Below are positions 51,101 through 60,512 of a stretch of DNA of 64,000 nt, piece by piece (position 1 is the stretch's first letter; the number at the start of each line of letters is the position of its first letter). The notes beneath the pieces are model-generated. The model was not told the DNA's origin. It did not search any database and worked only from the letters and a program-made list of their open reading frames with translations. The stretch is from Trichodelitschia bisporula. Lineage: Eukaryota. The translations under genes and the position numbers were made by a program. The stretch is from positions 62,001 to 126,000 of the forward strand of contig ML996697.1 of NCBI GenBank assembly GCA_010356995.1. The letters are read 5' to 3'.

Positions 51101-53796
51101 CATGCTGCGGGAGTTGAGGGGTTAGGAGGGATAAGGAGATGGAAGTTGAGATTGGAGATTTTTTTTGTCTTTTCGCGTTTCCGATGACGAGGCTGCGACG
51201 ACCAGAGGTTGAGGGGTAGGCGAAAAGGAAACGCCGTCCCGCGGTAAGCTCTCCAAACGATCGGATGAGGGACGGCGCGCACAGAGCGCGTCGTGCCCTT
51301 GGGCCCGCTGCGCGCAAACTGTTCGACGGGCCAGGGCCCCGGTCACGCTACGGCGATCCCGAGCGCAGGGGTCGAGGCGACGCGCGAGGGGTTGAGCCCC
51401 CCCAGCACGACAACTGTTCCACCAGCCCCCCGAGGGATGGAGAGGGGGAGGCCCAAGAGAGGGGCAGGAGCAGAAACATTAACAAGACGAATCACCATCA
51501 CGGAGCGCCCGCTTTGTCATCGCGTGAAGCAAGGGAAAGACTCCTTCTATGACGACGATGAGGGGATGCCGCGCTTCCGCATCGGTAAATTAACTGCAAA
51601 GACGTGGTACGCGGAGGGCGAACCGGGGAGACGATGCTAATTCGGGCGCGGCTTCTACCATTTGTGCACTCCCTTCGGCTCTACCTCCGTCTCTCGCCCG
51701 TCCTCTCGTTCTTCTACGACCAGCAACAGCATGAGGCCAAAGATGTCAACCAATGGAGGGCATATGCTCGCGCGCACACTGGATCCAGACGTCATTGGCT
51801 CGAGCCGGCGCGACCGCGTCAGGAGGTATGAAAGACATTCCCTATGCAAGCGATTGGTGTCGCAGCGGGATTCACACTGCAGGTGGCAGATCTCACGAGG
51901 GGTCCTCGGGGACGCGGAATATATTTCTTTGTGCGGGAGTGAGTGCGCAAGAAACTACCATACTGCTCTAGGTGTACCGTATCGGCAGGGGAGAGCGGCT
52001 TGCCGCGGCCGCCGGAACGCCGACGGCGCGCCCAACGTGATAGGGCTTGGTTCTACGGTACGTGTCTTGCGCCGGTGTCGGCAGCGAGGCAGACAGGACC
52101 GGCCATGCGAAAGCTGTTTCTCTGGGCCGTGGCGCCAAACGCGCGATGACTGCACACTCGTCACGATGGGCGTCAACTTTCGCTGCCGAGATATGCCATC
52201 ATGATGCCACCGCCGCGCACGGTAGCCGAGTGCACGGGAGGCAGCACGCGCCGGGCTTGCATGGCCACGCTGTTGCGATTCGGCGTGCCGCGGGGGAGGG
52301 GTAGGCGGTGGGGCTTGCGGTCCATGGCTTCTGGAACCTGGGCCGCTGGGGGTTGGAAAGAGCCTCGTCTGCTGGGTGAGTGAGCGCGGGCGCTGGGTGC
52401 GGGCGGGGAGGTGGGGTGTGTGCTGAGGGGGTTTTCCCGCATGCGTCAGCGATGCGTTGACGACGGGTCGCGCGTTGCGCGAAGGGTGCAGACCACTGGG
52501 GACCGGTTGTTTTGTTCGTCATCGCTTCGACATGCTCCTGGCCGACAGAGCCTCCAACGAGGGACGGTGGGTGCAAGAGGAGCTCAACTTGTGACAAAAC
52601 AGCCGGTGTAAAATTAGGCTGGGCGGGGGGGGGGTTGGAGGGGTGGTCGGGGGTTACGGCATTTGCCGGGCATGATGTGAGCAACGATGAACAGCGGACA
52701 CAGCCACTTTATGGGGGCGTTGGGCGAATCACTGGGCGCAAGAGTTGATTGTGGCGGTCGGGCCGGGGACTACTGGATTTTGCTGGGGTGGCAGGGCTAC
52801 GATGGGGCGCAGCGAATCATACCAAAGAGGGGAATCCGGCGGCGTGGGGTGCAGGCCCTGCCCTACCGTTAACGAAGAGCACGCACTATGGAGAAAGGGT
52901 TTTGAGGGGATAGGAGTGGAGAAGTGGAGAAGTGAAGAGCAAGGGAAGGAAGAGAGAGAGCAGCATGATATGCGGTAGGGGGGGATATGCGTGAGTACGA
53001 CGCGAGTACTGGGGGCGAGGGGAGCAGCGACGGAGTTTGGGAGAGGAGCAGTATGAAAGAGTAGCGATGTTGCAGAGAAGCGGAGAGAGGAAGGGAAAGA
53101 AGCGGAAAGGAGCGCCACGATAGCCCAAAAGGGATGGCGGACATGATATGGAGGCCATGCAGGGCGCAGGACTAGGCCGCGTCGGATGGACTGGGGCACT
53201 GGAAGAGGCTTAGGGGCTGGCAAGGGGATTAAGGTATTGGGCGATGCTGCTTGGGGATGCAGAAAGGCAGAGTTGTGGCTTGCTTCTCTGGCTTGATGGC
53301 CACACCGACACGTCCGGGGGTTGCTTTGGTGAGTTTGCGCGTCGGAGAGGGCGATCAAGGCGGGAGAATGGCGGAGTTGGCGTGTCAAGGGCTTTTTAAT
53401 TTTGTGGTGCAACTTACGGTACGCATGCCGAACTGTGGACCCATCTTCTTTGAGCCCCGTCACCATGTGCGATGCATGCAACTTGCTCTTTGAGGGGCTT
53501 TAACGAGTTGTTGATATTGTGTCTTCCTTGGTGAGCAGTACGCGACGTACATCACCACAGCCCCAGTAATGCCCTTGCCCCTCCCATACTGCCCATCCTC
53601 TCCTTCCCTGCCTATTCTGTCCATGCCTAGAACTGTAGTCCTTGCCTATTCTCCCTGTCAAGCCACATCAATTCCCCAATCGTCATTATTATCCACCCCA
53701 TAATCCTAGGCAAGGCAACGCCGATGTGTGTGCGCCGCGTGAGTTGTGTGGCATATACCGTACTCTTTTCCCTCTCTATGGCCCACTACTGTAAGG

Positions 53797-53841
53797 CTAC
53801 TACGGACACTACGGGGACTACGGGGACTACGGGGACTATGG
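53797..53841 (+). repeat. 9-bp tandem repeat (ACTACGGGG), ~4-5 copies
   Basis: ctactacggac actacgggg actacgggg actacgggg actatgg. Confidence 0.8.
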
Positions 53842-54840
53842 TGACGACGGTGAGTACGGTCTATCATCCATGCCCCATGTCCATGATGCCATTGGAATGG
53901 CATTGCTTCAATCATCCATGGGTTGCGCGCTCGACTGCCCGCCATTCCCGCCCATCAATTCAACCCCCCGCCTTGCTATTCACACCGGCTTTGGAGGTGA
54001 AGGTTACTATCGGAGCCTACAGCAGACATGCTACAGCAGACATCATACAGAGGCTCCCTATCCACACACGGTCCAAGGAAAGCACCCGCCTGCGCCATCA
54101 AAGCAAAGGGGATGCGACCGTCGACGCCGCCATCGTTTGCTGGAAGCCTGGAAGCATCTCTTGCCGCGCCTCTTTTTCAGTCGTGTCCATGAATCTCTTT
54201 TTTGCTTGCGTCCACTCCCATTCGACCACCCACCATCGCTCCATCGCTCCACACACATCCCCACCCCTCTTTAATCCATGTCATGGTAAACTGAGTTATG
54301 TCTGCTTGTCACTGAGCATTGTTCATGCCTCATAAGTTTGGGGGCCGCGAGATATCCCACCAACTATACATAGACCCAACTTCGCCTCCCTTCCCCCTCC
54401 CCCAATCCCAACCCACCATCACCTCCACATTCATCACCACAGTCCCAAACATCGAGGAATACTTGGACCACTTGTAGGACTACACAAAAGACATCACAAT
54501 TCCCCATCGCCATCTGGAACCGCCTTCAAACAAAAATCTTCCGGGTCTGGACTCTCTCTGGCGCATCCCCCCCCTCACTCTCCCCTCCACCCCCACCAAC
54601 ATCCGCGTTCGGTAAAAGTATCTGGCGATCTCTTTCCCGTGTGTTCACGCCGAAGTCACCTAAACAAGAATCCTGCCTGGTCGGAAGCAGCCATCCCTTC
54701 GCCCATCTCGAACCATATCCCTCCACCATCCAATCCTCGCGCCCAAGACACCTCCCCCGCGTGATTTTAACTCGCTGAAAACGCTTTCGCTTCCCACCCC
54801 ATCGATCGTTGAACAGGAAAAACGCCTCTTCGGTTGTTTT

Positions 54841-55082
54841 GTATGTACGTGCATGTAAGTGTCCACCCCGTGCAAAAGCCATCTCCCCTTTCTCCGCTGC
54901 CCTCTCCACCACTCCCACACCTCCGTTCCCCTCTACATGACCACCGATGCTTGTTGGCCAATCATGCCTTGGGCGGCAACTATCCCTCCATCCTGGCCCC
55001 CAACCTCTGTTTTTATATTACTTTGTTACTCCGCCCACTCGGAATTACAACACCAAAAGCCCTCTTGCTGATGTTAGCTTAG
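54841..55082 (+). other. probable 5'-UTR intron of the C2H2 gene
   Basis: Clustered donors (GTATGT at 54841, then GTACGT and GTAAGT), a GCTGAT branch-like site and TTAG acceptors just upstream of the ATG. Confidence 0.45.
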
Positions 55083-55144
55083 AAAGAGGATTGCCTCACG
55101 GTGCTACCACCGTTTTCCTGTGACGAGATAAATACCTGTCCGGC

Positions 55145-57106
55145 ATGACATCGTTCGCCTTCCCACCCACCATGGCTACCCACCACTTCGACCCGTACTC
55201 GTCCCACGACGCCTTTACAGACTACTCCGCTACGTCACAACCATTCCCTCCCGCAACATCCTACCAGGAGAGCCAATTCCTAACCGCCTTGTCCTCCATC
55301 GACTCCTATGCCCCCCTCACTGCCTACTCGGACATCTCCCGTTCCCAGGACTCCTTCACCGTCGACCCCCAAACTCACATGAAGCCCCACACCTACAGTC
55401 CCGACCTCTCCGAAGCAGGCCGCATGGCACCTCCCAACCTCTCCACCTCCTCCGAGTCCGGCACCTCGGCGCGAAGCACGTCGTCCTCGGCCATGGCCTC
55501 ACCGCACCTGCAGCCACAGTACCCCGCCGATCCATGGAACCGGTTGCTCCCCGGCGGCCAGGGCCTGGGTCTGGCGACGGACATGGCGGCGCAGGACGTG
55601 TTTGCGCGCGAGCCGTACTTTGTGTCGAGCGTCGAGCAGCATAACGGCTTGGTGGCTGCCGACAAGCTTCCCGGGTTCGTGGGTGAGTCTCCAGCTTCCG
55701 TACCGTACGACTCTTCACCACTCTTTTCTCCGCGCTTTTCTCCTGCTACTCCTCGCCCTTCTGTTTCTTCTCTGCGTGTTGGTGATCGCGTCCTCCCTGT
55801 TCCGCCGGTCTTGCCTTCTCAACGGGATGGCCGCAGTCCACGCCCACTTGATGAGGCGTTCAAATCGCCTGGGTTGCCGGCCAGTCGACTGTCAGTACCC
55901 AAATCACCAGGCCACAGATACCACCCCTACAGTGCGAGGCCTGGGTCGCGGAGGAATTCTCTTTTATCGCAGCAAGTTTATCCTGCTGCTCCCGATTCTG
56001 CTTCTCCTGTTTCCAGTCAGCAGAAGTCTCCATGTTCGTCGTTTCCTGCGCCTGCTTCATTCTCTTTGCCGCCACTGCTATCTGAAGCGCCGAAGCTGAC
56101 CAGCCTTGCTACAGACCCGTCCATCCTGAATCCCTTCCCCTCGCCCCTTCCCTACCCTGGATACGCCGACCTCAACGCCTCTTCTCCCCAGCTCTTCAAG
56201 CAACCTCCCTCTCCCACCCCCTCCAACGCCTCCGCCCGCAGCCAAACCGGAAAAGTCAAGCCCTCTCCTCACCAATCCCCCTACCTGCACACCCAGTCCT
56301 TCCAACCCTACTACCCCCAGGGCCGGCGATCATCCGTCTCGTCCCTCCACTCGCGGCACTCGCAACACAGCGGCAGCTTCGAACCCACTGACGAAGAACG
56401 CGAGAAAGGCCTCTGCCCGATCCCCGATTGTGGCCGCGTATTCAAGGACCTAAAAGCCCACCTCCTCACCCACCAGGACGAGCGGCCCGAGAAATGCCCC
56501 ATCCAGAGCTGCGAATACCACGGCAAGGGCTTCGCGCGGAAGTACGACAAGAACCGGCACACGTTGACGCACTACAAGGGGACCATGGTGTGCGGCTTCT
56601 GCCCCGGCAGCGGGAGCGCGGCGGAGAAATCCTTCAACCGCGCCGACGTGTTCAAGCGCCACCTCACCTCCGTGCACGGCGTCGAGCAGGCGCCCCCTAA
56701 TAGCCGGCGCAAGTCGCCGACGGTCAAGAAGCCCGGCTTCGCGATGACATCGTCGGCCGGCACGTGCTCCACCTGCAGCGTCACCTTCGCCAACGCGCAG
56801 GACTTCTACGAGCATCTCGACGACTGCGTGCTGCGCGTCGTGCAGCAGATCGACCCCGCCGAGGGCATCAACCACAAGAACCTGTCGTCCATCGCCGAGG
56901 ACGCGGGCGTCAAGGCCACGCTCGACCGGCACAACTTGTCTGGCGAGGAGGGCGCGCCCGTCGAGCCCGCGGACGAGGACGACGACGAGGACGAGGAGGA
57001 GCTGGAGGCGGACGATGCCGCGGATGGCACGTATGTTGGGCGTGGATCCCGCAAGGCCGGCTCGGCTGCTAAGCGTCGCTCCGCCGGCTCCGCGAGTTCG
57101 AGTTGA
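55145..57106 (+). CDS. C2H2 zinc-finger transcription factor (short form ending at the UGA)
   Basis: CPIPDCGRVFKDLKAHLLTH, CPIQSCEYHGKGFARKYDKNRHTLTH, CGFC...FNRADVFKRHLTSVH and CSTC..TF......YEHLDDC, with an S/P-rich N-terminus and an acidic tail. Confidence 0.92.
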   Translation: MTSFAFPPTMATHHFDPYSSHDAFTDYSATSQPFPPATSYQESQFLTALSSIDSYAPLTAYSDISRSQDSFTVDPQTHMKPHTYSPDLSEAGRMAPPNLSTSSESGTSARSTSSSAMASPHLQPQYPADPWNRLLPGGQGLGLATDMAAQDVFAREPYFVSSVEQHNGLVAADKLPGFVGESPASVPYDSSPLFSPRFSPATPRPSVSSLRVGDRVLPVPPVLPSQRDGRSPRPLDEAFKSPGLPASRLSVPKSPGHRYHPYSARPGSRRNSLLSQQVYPAAPDSASPVSSQQKSPCSSFPAPASFSLPPLLSEAPKLTSLATDPSILNPFPSPLPYPGYADLNASSPQLFKQPPSPTPSNASARSQTGKVKPSPHQSPYLHTQSFQPYYPQGRRSSVSSLHSRHSQHSGSFEPTDEEREKGLCPIPDCGRVFKDLKAHLLTHQDERPEKCPIQSCEYHGKGFARKYDKNRHTLTHYKGTMVCGFCPGSGSAAEKSFNRADVFKRHLTSVHGVEQAPPNSRRKSPTVKKPGFAMTSSAGTCSTCSVTFANAQDFYEHLDDCVLRVVQQIDPAEGINHKNLSSIAEDAGVKATLDRHNLSGEEGAPVEPADEDDDEDEEELEADDAADGTYVGRGSRKAGSAAKRRSAGSASSS

Positions 57107-57589
57107 CAATTAGCACACCTCGCGCGTGGCGGTGACAACATGCACGCGCAGGGTGGGCGATCGGAAACCAAGTCTGCGAGCGGTGGGTCCGGCGGTGCAG
57201 GTGGTCCCGGGAATCGCGTGGCGAAGCGGCCGCGCACGGGGCTTACGCTGAGCAAGGGCGGAGTGACGTTACACGGTCCCGCGATGAGCGGGCGCAAGAA
57301 GCGGCGCAATTATCCCGCGAGCTGGGGCAGCAGTGCCGAGAAGATGAAGATGAAGAAGAGGGTGCTGTGTGTGTATGATGGGCCCCGCCGCTTGTGGAAG
57401 GATGATATGATGATGGATGGGGAGTATGAGGTGCGGGTTGCGTTGCCGGGGGGTGATGGGCGCGCGTATGTGACCGATCTTGATGTACGCACGCTTGAGA
57501 GGGCGGTTGCGCTGCATGGTGCTACGGAGGAGGAGCGCGGGCCGTGGGTGCCGGATAATGTGCTCTGGGATGAGGGCGAGGGGTGGTGA
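57107..57589 (+). CDS. in-frame C-terminal extension (160 codons) of the C2H2 factor, reachable by UGA readthrough
   Basis: Same frame as the upstream ORF and stop-free. It is ordered and protein-like (RKKRRNYPASWG...KKRVLCVYDGPRRLWKDDMM...AYVTDLDVRTL...EEERGPW). The stop context is TGA CAA TTA plus a hairpin. Confidence 0.7.
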   Translation, partial: QLAHLARGGDNMHAQGGRSETKSASGGSGGAGGPGNRVAKRPRTGLTLSKGGVTLHGPAMSGRKKRRNYPASWGSSAEKMKMKKRVLCVYDGPRRLWKDDMMMDGEYEVRVALPGGDGRAYVTDLDVRTLERAVALHGATEEERGPWVPDNVLWDEGEGW

Positions 57590-60512
57590 TTTGTACTTGT
57601 ACCCTGATGTTGACGGCTCTTTAAGCGTATTTACGGCCTTGGATGGGAGGGGCAGGGAAGGTTGTAACCTTTGTCCTCTTGGGTTTTTAGGCGCATTGCG
57701 AGGGGATTTGAGCGTTTTTTCCTCTGGAGGATTTGGGGAAAATGGGATGGCACGAATGTGTGGGTCACGTACGTATCGATGAATTCGGACGTCTACTTTT
57801 TTTGATTGCTAGGCGCTCGTTTTGCTGGGGGTGCATGGGATATTCACCGGCCTCATCGCTCGGTACAGTGGGAACTCGATTTAACTCCGTCGGGTACAAT
57901 GACGGGGTAGCCTTGTGCCTTTGTCGTCCCTATCAGTCGTCTGTGGATCGCATCTCTTCATGCGCAGGATTAAGGCGATCGGAGGACGACTGACGGTGGC
58001 CATGCAGGCGTAAGGTCATCTGGCCATTGTACCTGGTGGGGACACAGTCATGAATAATGAGTTTTAATCAAGGTTTTGCTGTGACTGAGTGTGAGGTCTT
58101 TGAATGTGGGCAGTGAGGCTGTGCCCAGCAATTCCCGTTTTGTGGAGTGGTGAGGCACGTGATTCAGCCTGCTGCGACGCCGAGTCTACGGCTTCAATGA
58201 GGAATCGCCCAGCGAGTGTTACATCCGACGGAGGGACAACGGACGGGGCTTTCTCTGCTCTTAACTTAAGTTTGGAAGGCAGCTGGAGGAGCGCGCGCTT
58301 ATGAGGTTCTGCTTCTGTCTGGGGGAAGGGAGGTGGCTGGGGTGGGTGATGTTCCGTGTCTGGATTCGAATGTTGCTCTTGTGATCTGTCCCATGTCATC
58401 TGTCGCCGGTCATGGATAGTCCATTGCGGATAAAGATGTCTGGCTGTCTACCTGCCCTTGCCGCAGTGGGAGGTGCCGCGGAGGCCCCTGCCCGAGATCC
58501 CGCTGTTGCCATTCGGGCCGCGGGGAAGGACTGCTGCGAGGCTTGCGGACATCGGATGTTGGCAGGTCAGTTGAGAAATGGTGCTTGAGGTAGGAGAATG
58601 CAATTATTGCTGATAACCAGGCCCGACTGCGGTAGTGGCAGTGATGTCTGCTTTGGTAGTGGGCGGGATGAGGGAACGCGAGTGAGAACCAGTACCAGGA
58701 AACTGAAATGAAGAACAAAAAGGGCTCATCCTCCCTTTGGAGGTTCAGTTTTCGATGGAGCATACATACTGTAGACAGTTTTCGGTATGCCCCATGTGTG
58801 TAGGCTCAGCTCAGATGCTGCCCCGATCTCCTTCCTAGAGAGCGTTACCGACAGCCAGTGCCGCACGCTTTATTGGCTCCTCCCACGCGAGGATATTGGC
58901 TCTCCCTCACAGGACTCGCAAAACCACTTCGAATTCAAATCTCAGAGTCATCTGACGCCGGTGACAATGCCGAAGATGAGCTAGCAGCTTCCGCAAACGT
59001 CTGAACGCACTGTGAGCTGTGAAAAATATGATCAACAAATGTTGTGCAGCTTGCCGATGGTCTCTAGCGGCGCCATTCGCAATGCTTTGCTTGGTGCTCC
59101 TTGATAATCCCCTCGGAGTGCTGATACAGAGAGCATCAAGCAAAGCTTCGCAAATGGCGCCGCCAGGGACCTATCGGAAAGTTACACAAATCGTGGATCA
59201 TATTTTTCATAGCACACAGCGCATCCAGACGGTTGCAGAGCGTTTGCAGACAGACGAACTGTCGGCCATGTCTGTCTACCGTCTTATTATCAACGGCGGT
59301 GTTCAATGGAATTCCACGGTGACGGAAGATGTCGGGCTTCCTTCAGCATTCGCTGCAGTTTAGTGGCCGTCGGGAAAGTTTGCTCGAGATGGCAAGAGAT
59401 CTGTAGCGAAATAGCCCAACGATGGGTTTATCGTTTTCATGTGAGCGGGATGGATCGATATGCTCGATGTCCCTTTCCGAGGCTCAGGGCGTATCTGTCG
59501 CTCGTGGTCAGTGAGTAAACGGAACTTGAGCAGAATGACGTACTGTTATGTGATGAAGTGGCAGAGACCTGATGCCAAAAGGTGTCGTCTCTCGGCGAAT
59601 CTCCCATCTGAGAGCCAGTGGGTAATATGAGGTGGAGTTGGTGCTGTGAGATGGCTGAGGAATGATGGAGCCCTCAGGACAGATAAAGTGGAGAGGGGTA
59701 CATAAGAAAGTCGCTGCATGCTAATGGGTGGAGTATGGCGAGGCCGGCGGCAACTATATCTACGGATAAACAGTCTCTCCTTACCCCGGTCGACGCGGGA
59801 TGAGGGCCAGCTGTACATTCACCCAACTGGCAGCTGACGCCGTACTCCGAAGCATGACTTGACTACATCAAACAGCCTTTCTGTTCGTCTTCCCGCCGAA
59901 CAGTCCAACAAGTAGACGAGATAAAAGCTCCTCCCTTTTATTCCGTCTCTCGTCCCCTCCCTCAAGTCCTCCCAGCATCGCATCCTCCGCGTCCCGAGCT
60001 TCTCCCCTCACGACGCCTGCAAGCGCCGCGCCATCTGCCCTATCCTCCCCCGTCCTGCCCCGCTCAAGAGTGGGGGTGTAGTTCTAGACGAAGGCGCGCC
60101 CAGCTCCCACCCCAAACCTGACGCCTGCGCGAGTACAACATCCCGACGGCTGTAACAACAACGCATGAGCTCGTTGGGTGTGTGAGATATACGGGAACGG
60201 GTTGCAGCAGCGCACTCTCCTCGGGTCTCCCTCAAGACACCACCCCCACGGTTCGCGGCCCCTCGACCCCCAACTTCACACAGCGGAGCGCATTACGTGC
60301 CGCGTCCAAGAGGGTGTCGCTCTAGGTCGACGGGCTGAGGAAGACGTATCTGAGTGCGAGACGGGAGATACGTGTCGCTTCAGTTCCTCGTCGGCGTGGT
60401 ACTCCAACTTGTTCCACGCGAAACAGGCACTCGGACGCTCGCCGACCCCGCTCTTGAGGGAGTAGGCCTCACCATCCACATCTGTTCTACGCTCGCTACG
60501 TTCCCACTCAGC

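Follow-up and report, generated by a model that had tools for sequence, protein, structure and literature searches.

In a 64,000-nucleotide stretch of genomic DNA from Trichodelitschia bisporula (assembly GCA_010356995.1, contig ML996697.1, positions 62,001 to 126,000 of the forward strand; this stretch is the window, and all coordinates below are its own), a gene for a C2H2/C2HC zinc-finger transcription factor is interrupted by an in-frame UGA at 57104–57106, which is very probably best explained by programmed translational readthrough. The stop codon, the six nucleotides behind it and a stem-loop further downstream are conserved among relatives, and the stem covaries; the frame past the stop is under selection at the protein level; and spliced RNA keeps the stop. 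The original prediction, made from the letters of the window alone, was that one messenger RNA (mRNA) gives a short and a long factor, a proposal to which conservation, covariation, coding constraint and RNA-derived contigs now lend strong support. All the computational checks suggested alongside it turned out in its favor. That ribosomes read the codon through, how often they do so and which residue they insert are what we infer from these data.

The frame considered here is the zinc-finger open reading frame (ORF) that starts with the ATG at 55145 on the plus strand. Its relevant parts are the following:

55145–57103, plus strand: coding sequence of the short form, from the ATG to the codon preceding the UGA, defined by the ORF, by the splice joints 55681>56114 and 56033>56115, and by an N-terminus (MTSFAFPP) that matches those of relatives.
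56414–56827, plus strand: zinc-finger region, with three C2H2-like fingers and one C2HC finger (residues 424–561 of P0001).
57104–57106, plus strand: in-frame UGA, the proposed leaky stop, taken from the sequence; TGA in all 51 stop-bearing cluster representatives and kept in the RNA-derived contig X1 record 5.
57107–57112, plus strand: CAA UUA hexamer, a tobamovirus-type CAR-YYA context; CAA is invariant and is followed by TTA, TCA, CTA or CCA in all stop-bearing sequences.
57107–57586, plus strand: proposed readthrough extension of 160 codons, comprising a variable linker (57107–57238) and a conserved C-terminal domain from GLTLSKGGV (57239) onward.
57113–57158, plus strand: stem-loop, composed of the 9-base-pair (bp) stem of the family (57116–57124/57147–57155), with window extensions at 57113–57114/57157–57158 and an inner helix reaching 57128/57143.
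57587–57589, plus strand: second stop, TGA, which by ORF reading ends the long form; the terminal stop varies among relatives.

The tail of the zinc-finger frame reads ...GCG AGT TCG AGT TGA CAA TTA, and beyond this TGA the same frame stays open for 160 codons, up to the second TGA. The extension contains the basic patches GRKKRRNYP and KMKMKKR and has the C-terminus ...EGEGW. Both the open frame past the stop and the basic patches had been part of the original prediction and are found in the sequence as claimed.

The first line of evidence is the conservation of the stop and its context. A scan of metagenome contigs found 322 relatives, and the analysis was made on the best 80 of them; 77 of these loci reach the site, and three end before it. 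An in-frame TGA stands at the homologous place in 72 of the 77, between 86 and 96 codons past a CVLRVVQQ anchor, and in all 72 it is followed by CAA and then by TTA, TCA, CTA or CCA. Such recurrence of TGA-CAA-YYA at a homologous place is far beyond chance. It also survives removal of redundancy: with the window included, clustering of the sequences at 95% nucleotide identity gives 54 groups (36 at 85%), and the motif is present in 51 of the 54. Both strict anchors were found in 50 sequences, in every one of which the two parts share a frame; exactly one stop lies between them in 45 (44 loci and the window), and none in five.

The two codons 3′ of the stop are only ever CAA and YYA. Elsewhere in these segments CAA makes up 36.6% of glutamine codons, TTA and CTA together 8.8% of leucine codons, TCA 11.9% of serine codons and CCA 16.2% of proline codons, with A-ending codons amounting to 13.1% of all codons. 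All 51 representatives have TGA as their internal stop; among the 46 terminal stops that could be read, 35 are TGA, nine TAA and two TAG. In the DNA alignment of the 51 stop-bearing sequences (alignment A2), no column is invariant apart from T, G, A, C, A, A and the last A of the hexamer. These data indicate that the constraint at the stop and hexamer acts on nucleotides, not on residues. Placed approximately, by nearest named protein, the stop-bearing loci resemble Pleosporales (up to 90% identity to proteins of Pyrenophora and Alternaria), Teratosphaeriaceae-like fungi and lichen-forming Lecanoromycetes (76% to a protein of Pleopsidium flavum), while the best named relative of the window, with equally approximate placement, is Tothia fuscella of the Venturiales. 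The putatively leaky stop is a family-wide, ancient arrangement that is not limited to this gene copy. One locus, L018 (1347–1485), carries TGA-CAATTA, and its frame closes 45 codons on, ahead of the C-terminal domain; this could be a frameshift error of a short contig or real decay.

The second line of evidence is the hairpin. It had been proposed that 57113–57128 pairs with 57143–57158, and the minimum free energy fold of 57104–57166 indeed contains the pairs 57113–57114/57157–57158, 57116–57120/57151–57155 and 57122–57128/57143–57149. The fold energy is −26.5 kcal/mol, compared with a mean of −18.8 for shuffled sequences (z = −3.1; 3 of 200 shuffles equal it). RNAalifold, applied unaided to alignment A2, pairs columns 22–30 with columns 56–64. 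In this 9-bp stem, 86.7% of 458 cells can pair, compared with 42.7–55.6% when the 3′ arm is slid by one to three columns; compensatory changes occur in eight of the nine pairs, and the covariation score of 0.323, compared with 0.169 in shuffles, was reached by none of 500 shuffles. The compensation can be seen at the level of codons: four representatives have HSR for HPR (TCC for CCC), and the opposite arm has GSG or GDG for GGG, which is the compensating change in the RNA. The family stem starts 9 nucleotides (nt) past the stop, and the hairpin of the window is in the same register. When ten divergent members were folded singly, the stem began between nt 10 and nt 20, counted from the U of UGA; in six of the ten it began at nt 13, and these include members of groups whose sequence in this part cannot be aligned (such as L017, L024 and L046).

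The third line of evidence is that the sequence behind the stop encodes a conserved protein domain. A search with residues 655–814 found 403 proteins (E ≤ 1e-3; best E 1.9e-54, 71% identity), all of them Pezizomycotina zinc-finger proteins of 448–1427 residues with the extension sequence as their C-terminus. In an alignment of 14 of the proteins (alignment A1), the stop falls into a variable linker, which is flanked upstream by an acidic tract with a TY..R..RSGKG motif and downstream by the block GLTxSKGGV...GRKKRKNYPxSWG...KKRVLCVYDGxRRLWKDDMM...YVTDLDV. The extension alignment has 27 invariant columns, and every invariant residue is intact in the window. The ratio of nonsynonymous to synonymous substitution rates (dN/dS), calculated by the Nei-Gojobori method for the 111 of 1128 representative pairs with dS of 0.15–1.2, has medians of 0.14 between the anchor and the stop, 0.41 in the linker behind the stop and 0.14 in the C-terminal domain; the window's own comparisons are saturated at silent sites. 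The C-terminal domain is therefore under the same purifying selection as the part upstream of the stop, and the linker too evolves under constraint.

An AlphaFold2 model of the extension, built from 45 sequences, has a mean predicted local distance difference test (pLDDT) score of 57.9, with only residues 80–150 reaching 70–84; these approximately 70 residues are the predicted folded part. A fold search over 48,161 PDB representatives gave a best Z of 3.0 and hence no fold match, and the ESM Atlas gave no usable match for the extension. Pfam gave nothing for the extension in a copy that lacks the PF28332 model; PF28332 is assigned only to relatives that include the C-terminal domain, so that membership of the window gene in this family goes by the listing of its relatives.

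The fourth line of evidence comes from RNA. Two sequencing runs, X1 and X2, which belong to one sample of one study of the window's own organism, provided contigs that were placed on 52000–60000; they are taken as RNA-derived because they contain canonical intron joints. In these contigs the three GT..AG introns of the gene are removed and the segment with the stop is retained. X1 record 5 starts exactly at the exon start at 56115 and ends at 57872, with 0 differences and no gap; therefore the dominant mRNA keeps the TGA. No alternative letter is reported in the contigs anywhere across the stretch.

Contigs of two other lineages that resemble complementary DNA (cDNA) also keep the TGA. Thus, compared with the genomic L005/L011, to which they are about 94% identical, L004, L012, L014 and L015 have cleanly lost a 5′ untranslated region (UTR) intron of about 107 nt and a coding intron of 110 or 542 nt, and they are collinear with the genomic contigs across the TGA. 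Analogously, L052 is 99.8–100% identical to the genomic L050/L051 apart from two removed introns and runs gap-free for 2065 nt across the TGA. At the level of contigs, no cDNA sequence without the stop segment was found in the three lineages, and neither a splice junction nor a base change was seen at the stop.

Several observations weigh against readthrough, or limit the case for it. The support is at the level of sequence and RNA, and the covariation counts and dN/dS pairs are not phylogenetically independent. The stop is absent from five of the 77 loci: L007 and L009 have the sense codon GGT in its position, L058 and L063 have a deletion of about nine codons there, and L067 has no stop. These five apart, the relatives have the stop and not a sense codon at this place. 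Proteins of Chaetothyriales (e.g., P0086 to P0093) run through the site without the motif and apparently lack the stop as well; together with the five loci, they imply that the short form is dispensable in some lineages. It should be noted that the records of X1 and X2 are labeled only “RNA?”, and that contigs lose rare variants, so that a minor spliced or edited form could escape notice. The X2 contigs listed end at 57094 and restart at 57155, which are 60 nt apart, in frame, and enclose the stop together with the hairpin's 5′ half. Finally, the window contains a weak in-frame GC-AG intron candidate of 60 nt, from GCGAGT at 57092 to CAG at 57151, which the original prediction had missed.

Three annotated proteins have a sense residue at the site (W in P0041 and P0033, G in P0015), and L007, having lost the stop, also has a decayed hexamer, CAA GTC. 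The pairs L007/L009 and L058/L063, the locus L067 and the proteins P0015, P0033 and P0041 represent independent losses, in which a Gly or Trp codon replaced the stop or a short deletion removed it.

The GC-AG candidate and the X2 break bear on the alternative that an in-frame intron, weakly used and mostly retained, removes the stop, so that the long form would be made from a minor spliced mRNA. We consider this very unlikely, although it has several points in its favor: the candidate at 57092–57151 has, besides its donor and its in-frame length, a branch-like GTGAC 15 nt ahead of the CAG; comparable 60-nt candidates, GCAAGT..CAG, are present in L059 and L061; X2 breaks at 57094/57155; and the gene uses alternative in-frame introns elsewhere. 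The splice-site statement of the original prediction is confirmed: when every GT/GC..AG pair that encloses the stop and whose length is a multiple of three is listed, the GTATGT at 57031 combines only with poor GAG acceptors (57180, 57252, 57288, 57321), and not with those at 57113, 57151, 57172 or 57200. Since the GTATGT sits within the conserved TY..R..RSGKG coding motif, where it encodes T-Y-V, it was rejected as a donor. A 105-nt candidate with donor GTTCGA (57096–57200) was also rejected, having neither a branch site nor conservation.

Against such a minor intron stands the behavior of the family. In-frame introns of 45–250 nt with a consensus-like donor, a branch motif and a YAG acceptor were sought in the 51 representatives; strict candidates that span the stop exist in six, and eight more appear only with a loose donor, all in non-homologous places, so that no conserved intron across the stop was found among the representatives. 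Moreover, an intron would not demand that the frame be the same on both sides, that there be a single stop, that the linker evolve with a dN/dS of 0.41, or that TGA-CAA-YYA be invariant, and the segment is kept in the spliced contigs of all three lineages. The X2 break itself fits neither the GC-AG candidate, whose junction would give ends at 57092/57152, nor any canonical intron. No joint is reported at the break in the X2 records covered (66 other records lie beyond them), and it may be due to a pair of variant sites or to thin coverage at the hairpin.

Slightly less probable still is stage-specific adenosine-to-inosine (A-to-I) editing of the mRNA, which would convert UGA to UGG (Trp) in the manner of the stop-loss editing known from Sordariomycetes. 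According to PMC13123824, Fusarium and Neurospora commonly edit stops in this way while they develop sexually, and it may be added that some relatives have W at the site and that a hairpin is nearby. However, the same source describes a bias of fungal editing toward UAG, in which the A that is edited occupies the loop of a hairpin, whereas the stop here is invariably UGA, with its A 10 nt upstream of the stem. Editing also leaves the invariant CAA-YYA unexplained. No G is seen at the site in the contigs of three lineages, which possibly come from vegetative samples and from which rare variants are dropped.

A further alternative, to which we assign an even smaller probability, holds that translation always stops at the UGA and that the C-terminal domain is a separate protein, made by reinitiation, by internal initiation or from a transcript of its own. 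The window has an in-frame ATG at 57140, 11 codons past the stop, before which a separate transcript might start, and contigs cannot reveal transcript starts. However, this ATG is not conserved: the first in-frame Met past the stop lies behind YPxxWG in 43 of the 49 representatives in which that motif was found, the window being one of the six exceptions, and no conserved start codon downstream of the stop was found among the representatives. A first Met behind YPxxWG means that the conserved GLTxSKGGV and GRKKRKNYP would go untranslated, yet they are under selection. The common frame of the two parts in 50 of 50 two-anchor sequences, and the fused proteins that result from loss of the stop, likewise speak against separate proteins. 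Frameshifting was rejected because both parts are in the same frame.

The remaining alternatives have a negligible probability. In single assemblies, such a pattern most often stems from a nonsense mutation peculiar to the strain, from a base-call error or from a decaying pseudogene. An explanation of this kind is already refuted by the presence of the stop in 72 of 77 related loci, by the 69 of 85 annotated proteins, from many named species, that end at the site, by the identical base in RNA-derived contigs and by the intact invariant residues downstream. Selenocysteine would account for a conserved in-frame UGA with conserved coding sequence behind it, but Rfam has no match in 56800–58100, a selenocysteine insertion sequence (SECIS) included, the replacements at the codon are Gly and Trp, not Cys, and the site lies in a variable, disordered linker; moreover, Ascomycota are not known to have the selenocysteine machinery.

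Readthrough of the UGA suggests the following mechanism. The mature mRNA would keep the UGA between the DNA-binding part and the conserved C-terminal domain of the transcription factor. Most ribosomes would terminate there and yield the short factor, which has only the zinc fingers and the acidic tract; a fraction would decode the UGA with a near-cognate tRNA and continue for 160 codons, and the resulting long form would have 161 more residues, among them the basic GRKKR(K/R)NYPxSWG patch and the predicted folded domain of about 70 residues. Leakiness would be set by a two-part signal, namely the CAA-YYA directly 3′ of the stop and the stem-loop with its first pair 9 nt past the stop. Hypothetically, the short form could then act as an effector-less competitor of the long form for DNA sites. 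Lineages without the stop would make only the long form, which suggests that the long form has the basic function and the short form is a regulatory addition.

We tentatively go further, while regarding what follows as somewhat doubtful. The two-part signal (UGA-CAA-YYA, 9-nt spacer and covarying stem) may predate the split between Dothideomycetes and lichen-forming Lecanoromycetes and serve as a rheostat for the ratio of the effector-less DNA-binding form to the full-length form. Its leak rate might respond to growth conditions, e.g., through the supply of release factor or tRNA-Trp, and lineages with Trp, Gly or a deletion at the site would be locked in the long state.

The components of this signal have precedents. 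UAG_CAR_YYA is the type I viral readthrough signal, which also acts on UGA, and 3′ readthrough structures typically start about 8 nt past the stop (PMC3542737). In yeast reporters, CAA-UUA was the strongest hexamer tested, and yeast BSC4 has CAA-CUA (PMC4446449); yeast UGA is decoded as Trp in 82% of cases and as Cys in 14%, with Arg making up the remainder (PMC4150775). The hexamer of every stop-bearing sequence here fits the type I context, directly 3′ of the stop. Unlike the tobamovirus-type cases, the stop is UGA rather than UAG, the gene encodes a cellular transcription factor of filamentous ascomycetes, the extension is a conserved domain of 160 residues rather than a replicase or a short tail, and a covarying stem-loop joins the hexamer. 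The stem itself resembles the 3′ stem-loops of alphaviruses, of other type II/III cases and of Drosophila hdc (Firth et al. 2011, as given in PMC3542737), in that it starts 9 nt past the stop, near the 8-nt rule, and shows compensatory changes. Those cases, so far as that source describes them, mostly have UGA-CGG/CUA or UAG-G, whereas here a stem accompanies a perfect type I hexamer, and stimulation by the stem is a prediction.

Among cellular examples, the UGA-CUA readthrough that adds a type 1 peroxisomal targeting signal (PTS1) in fungi and animals (PMC4207609) is similar in being readthrough of a cellular UGA in fungi with two isoforms per mRNA, which here are predicted. It differs in its context, CUA(G) rather than CAA-YYA, and in concerning metabolic enzymes rather than a DNA-binding factor; in the window the context is CAA UUA, and the 160-residue extension ends in GEGW, with no PTS1-like tripeptide. 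Readthrough transcription factors of Drosophila (POU/Oct, PMC8417969) likewise have an altered C-terminus and were found through coding conservation beyond the stop, but kingdom and signal differ, and in the present family an ancient domain forms the extension, which some relatives carry as a constitutive fusion. The A-to-I stop-loss editing of Sordariomycetes (PMC13123824) is another fungal route to extending a protein past its stop; as described there, it concerns UAG in hairpin loops at the sexual stage, unlike the invariant UGA with readthrough context in this gene.

The kinds of signal are thus already known; what is unusual is that the UGA is followed by both a perfect type I hexamer and a covarying stem, and that the arrangement is so deeply conserved. 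To our knowledge, there is no such case for a transcription factor of filamentous ascomycetes, and the literature covered, to which subscription journals do not belong, yielded no description of readthrough in this family. Conservation, covariation and coding signature make this a well-supported example of a rare kind, namely programmed readthrough of a cellular gene that is neither animal nor viral.

Public annotation reflects the same stop, as judged from the protein models of named species. A search with the finger region gave 85 further proteins, and in 69 of these the sequence ends 84–100 residues past the anchor, where the conserved stop lies; ...GGIKSTKSH is an example of such a tail. 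Among the 69 are proteins of Parastagonospora nodorum, Bipolaris sorokiniana, Exserohilum turcicum, Alternaria atra, Periconia digitata and Ascochyta lentis. Other models reach the C-terminal domain by skipping the site, at places that differ among species (for example P0010, P0011, P0021, P0023, P0027, P0029, P0075, P0077, P0082, P0099). If the UGA is leaky, public gene models are wrong in two ways: some stop at the UGA and lose the domain, and others reach it through invented introns. Recognizing the readthrough would correct hundreds of gene models, and the site is present in the relatives nearest to many studied plant-associated fungi. It would also give fungal geneticists who work on termination control a compact, naturally occurring cassette for readthrough, some 55 nt long.

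With respect to the DNA-binding part, the gene of the window has both the finger block (KGFARKYDKNRHTLTHYKGTMVCGFCPG...) and the C-terminal domain RVLCVYDGxRRLWKDDMM. The finger region is a nearly invariant block in the alignment of relatives, and a search with it found 1661 proteins at E ≤ 1e-20; its PF00096 (zf-C2H2) match, at 424–443, is below the Pfam cut-off. NsdC of Aspergillus and Nsd3 of Trichoderma are described as having two C-X2-C-X12-H-X3-H fingers and a C2HC finger (PMC13599534). The C2HC finger of the window gene is C-X2-C-X12-H-X3-C and its other fingers are C-X4-C-X9-H-X3-H, C-X4-C-X15-H-X3-H and C-X2-C-X19-H-X4-H, a comparison that goes by the description of NsdC. No match named NsdC occurs among the results of the extension and finger-region searches. 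Upstream of the stop, a GAC/GAG-rich stretch at 56961–57014 encodes the acidic tract (DEDDDEDEEELE), which was treated as a repeat during read placement; all relatives have an acidic tract at the corresponding place.

The gene has further parts outside the frame discussed above:

53951–54854, plus strand: first exon (5′ UTR), defined by X1 record 2 (53951–54854) and X2 record 10 (53665–54854), both of which end at the joint 54854>55083.
54855–55082, plus strand: 5′ UTR intron of 228 nt, GT..AG, with its joint in both runs.
57590–57872, plus strand: 3′ UTR, to the end of X1 record 5; X1 depth is 0 in 57874–58407.

The X2 contig starts farther upstream than that of X1 (53665 compared with 53951). 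A 5′ UTR intron of about 107–111 nt is found at the matching place in relatives (L005, L050). Within the coding sequence there are two alternative in-frame introns with a common acceptor, 55683–56114 (432 nt, donor GTGAGT) and 56034–56114 (81 nt, donor GTTCGT); because both lengths are multiples of three and the stretch is free of stops, the genome reads as one continuous ORF. This upstream splice choice sets the length of the short form to 509 or 626 residues. The optional 351 nt (55683–56033) are homologous to protein sequence in some relatives (alignment A1), and an equivalent choice is seen in another lineage, where 435 nt are absent from L012 and L015 and kept in L004 and L014.

Downstream of the gene, one X2 contig (57155–59683) runs unbroken from this gene through the intergenic stretch into a convergent neighbor on the minus strand, with the neighbor's 49-nt intron (59495–59543, CT..AC) spliced out, whereas the coverage by X1 reaches no farther than 57872. 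Under some conditions the two convergent transcripts may overlap at their 3′ ends.

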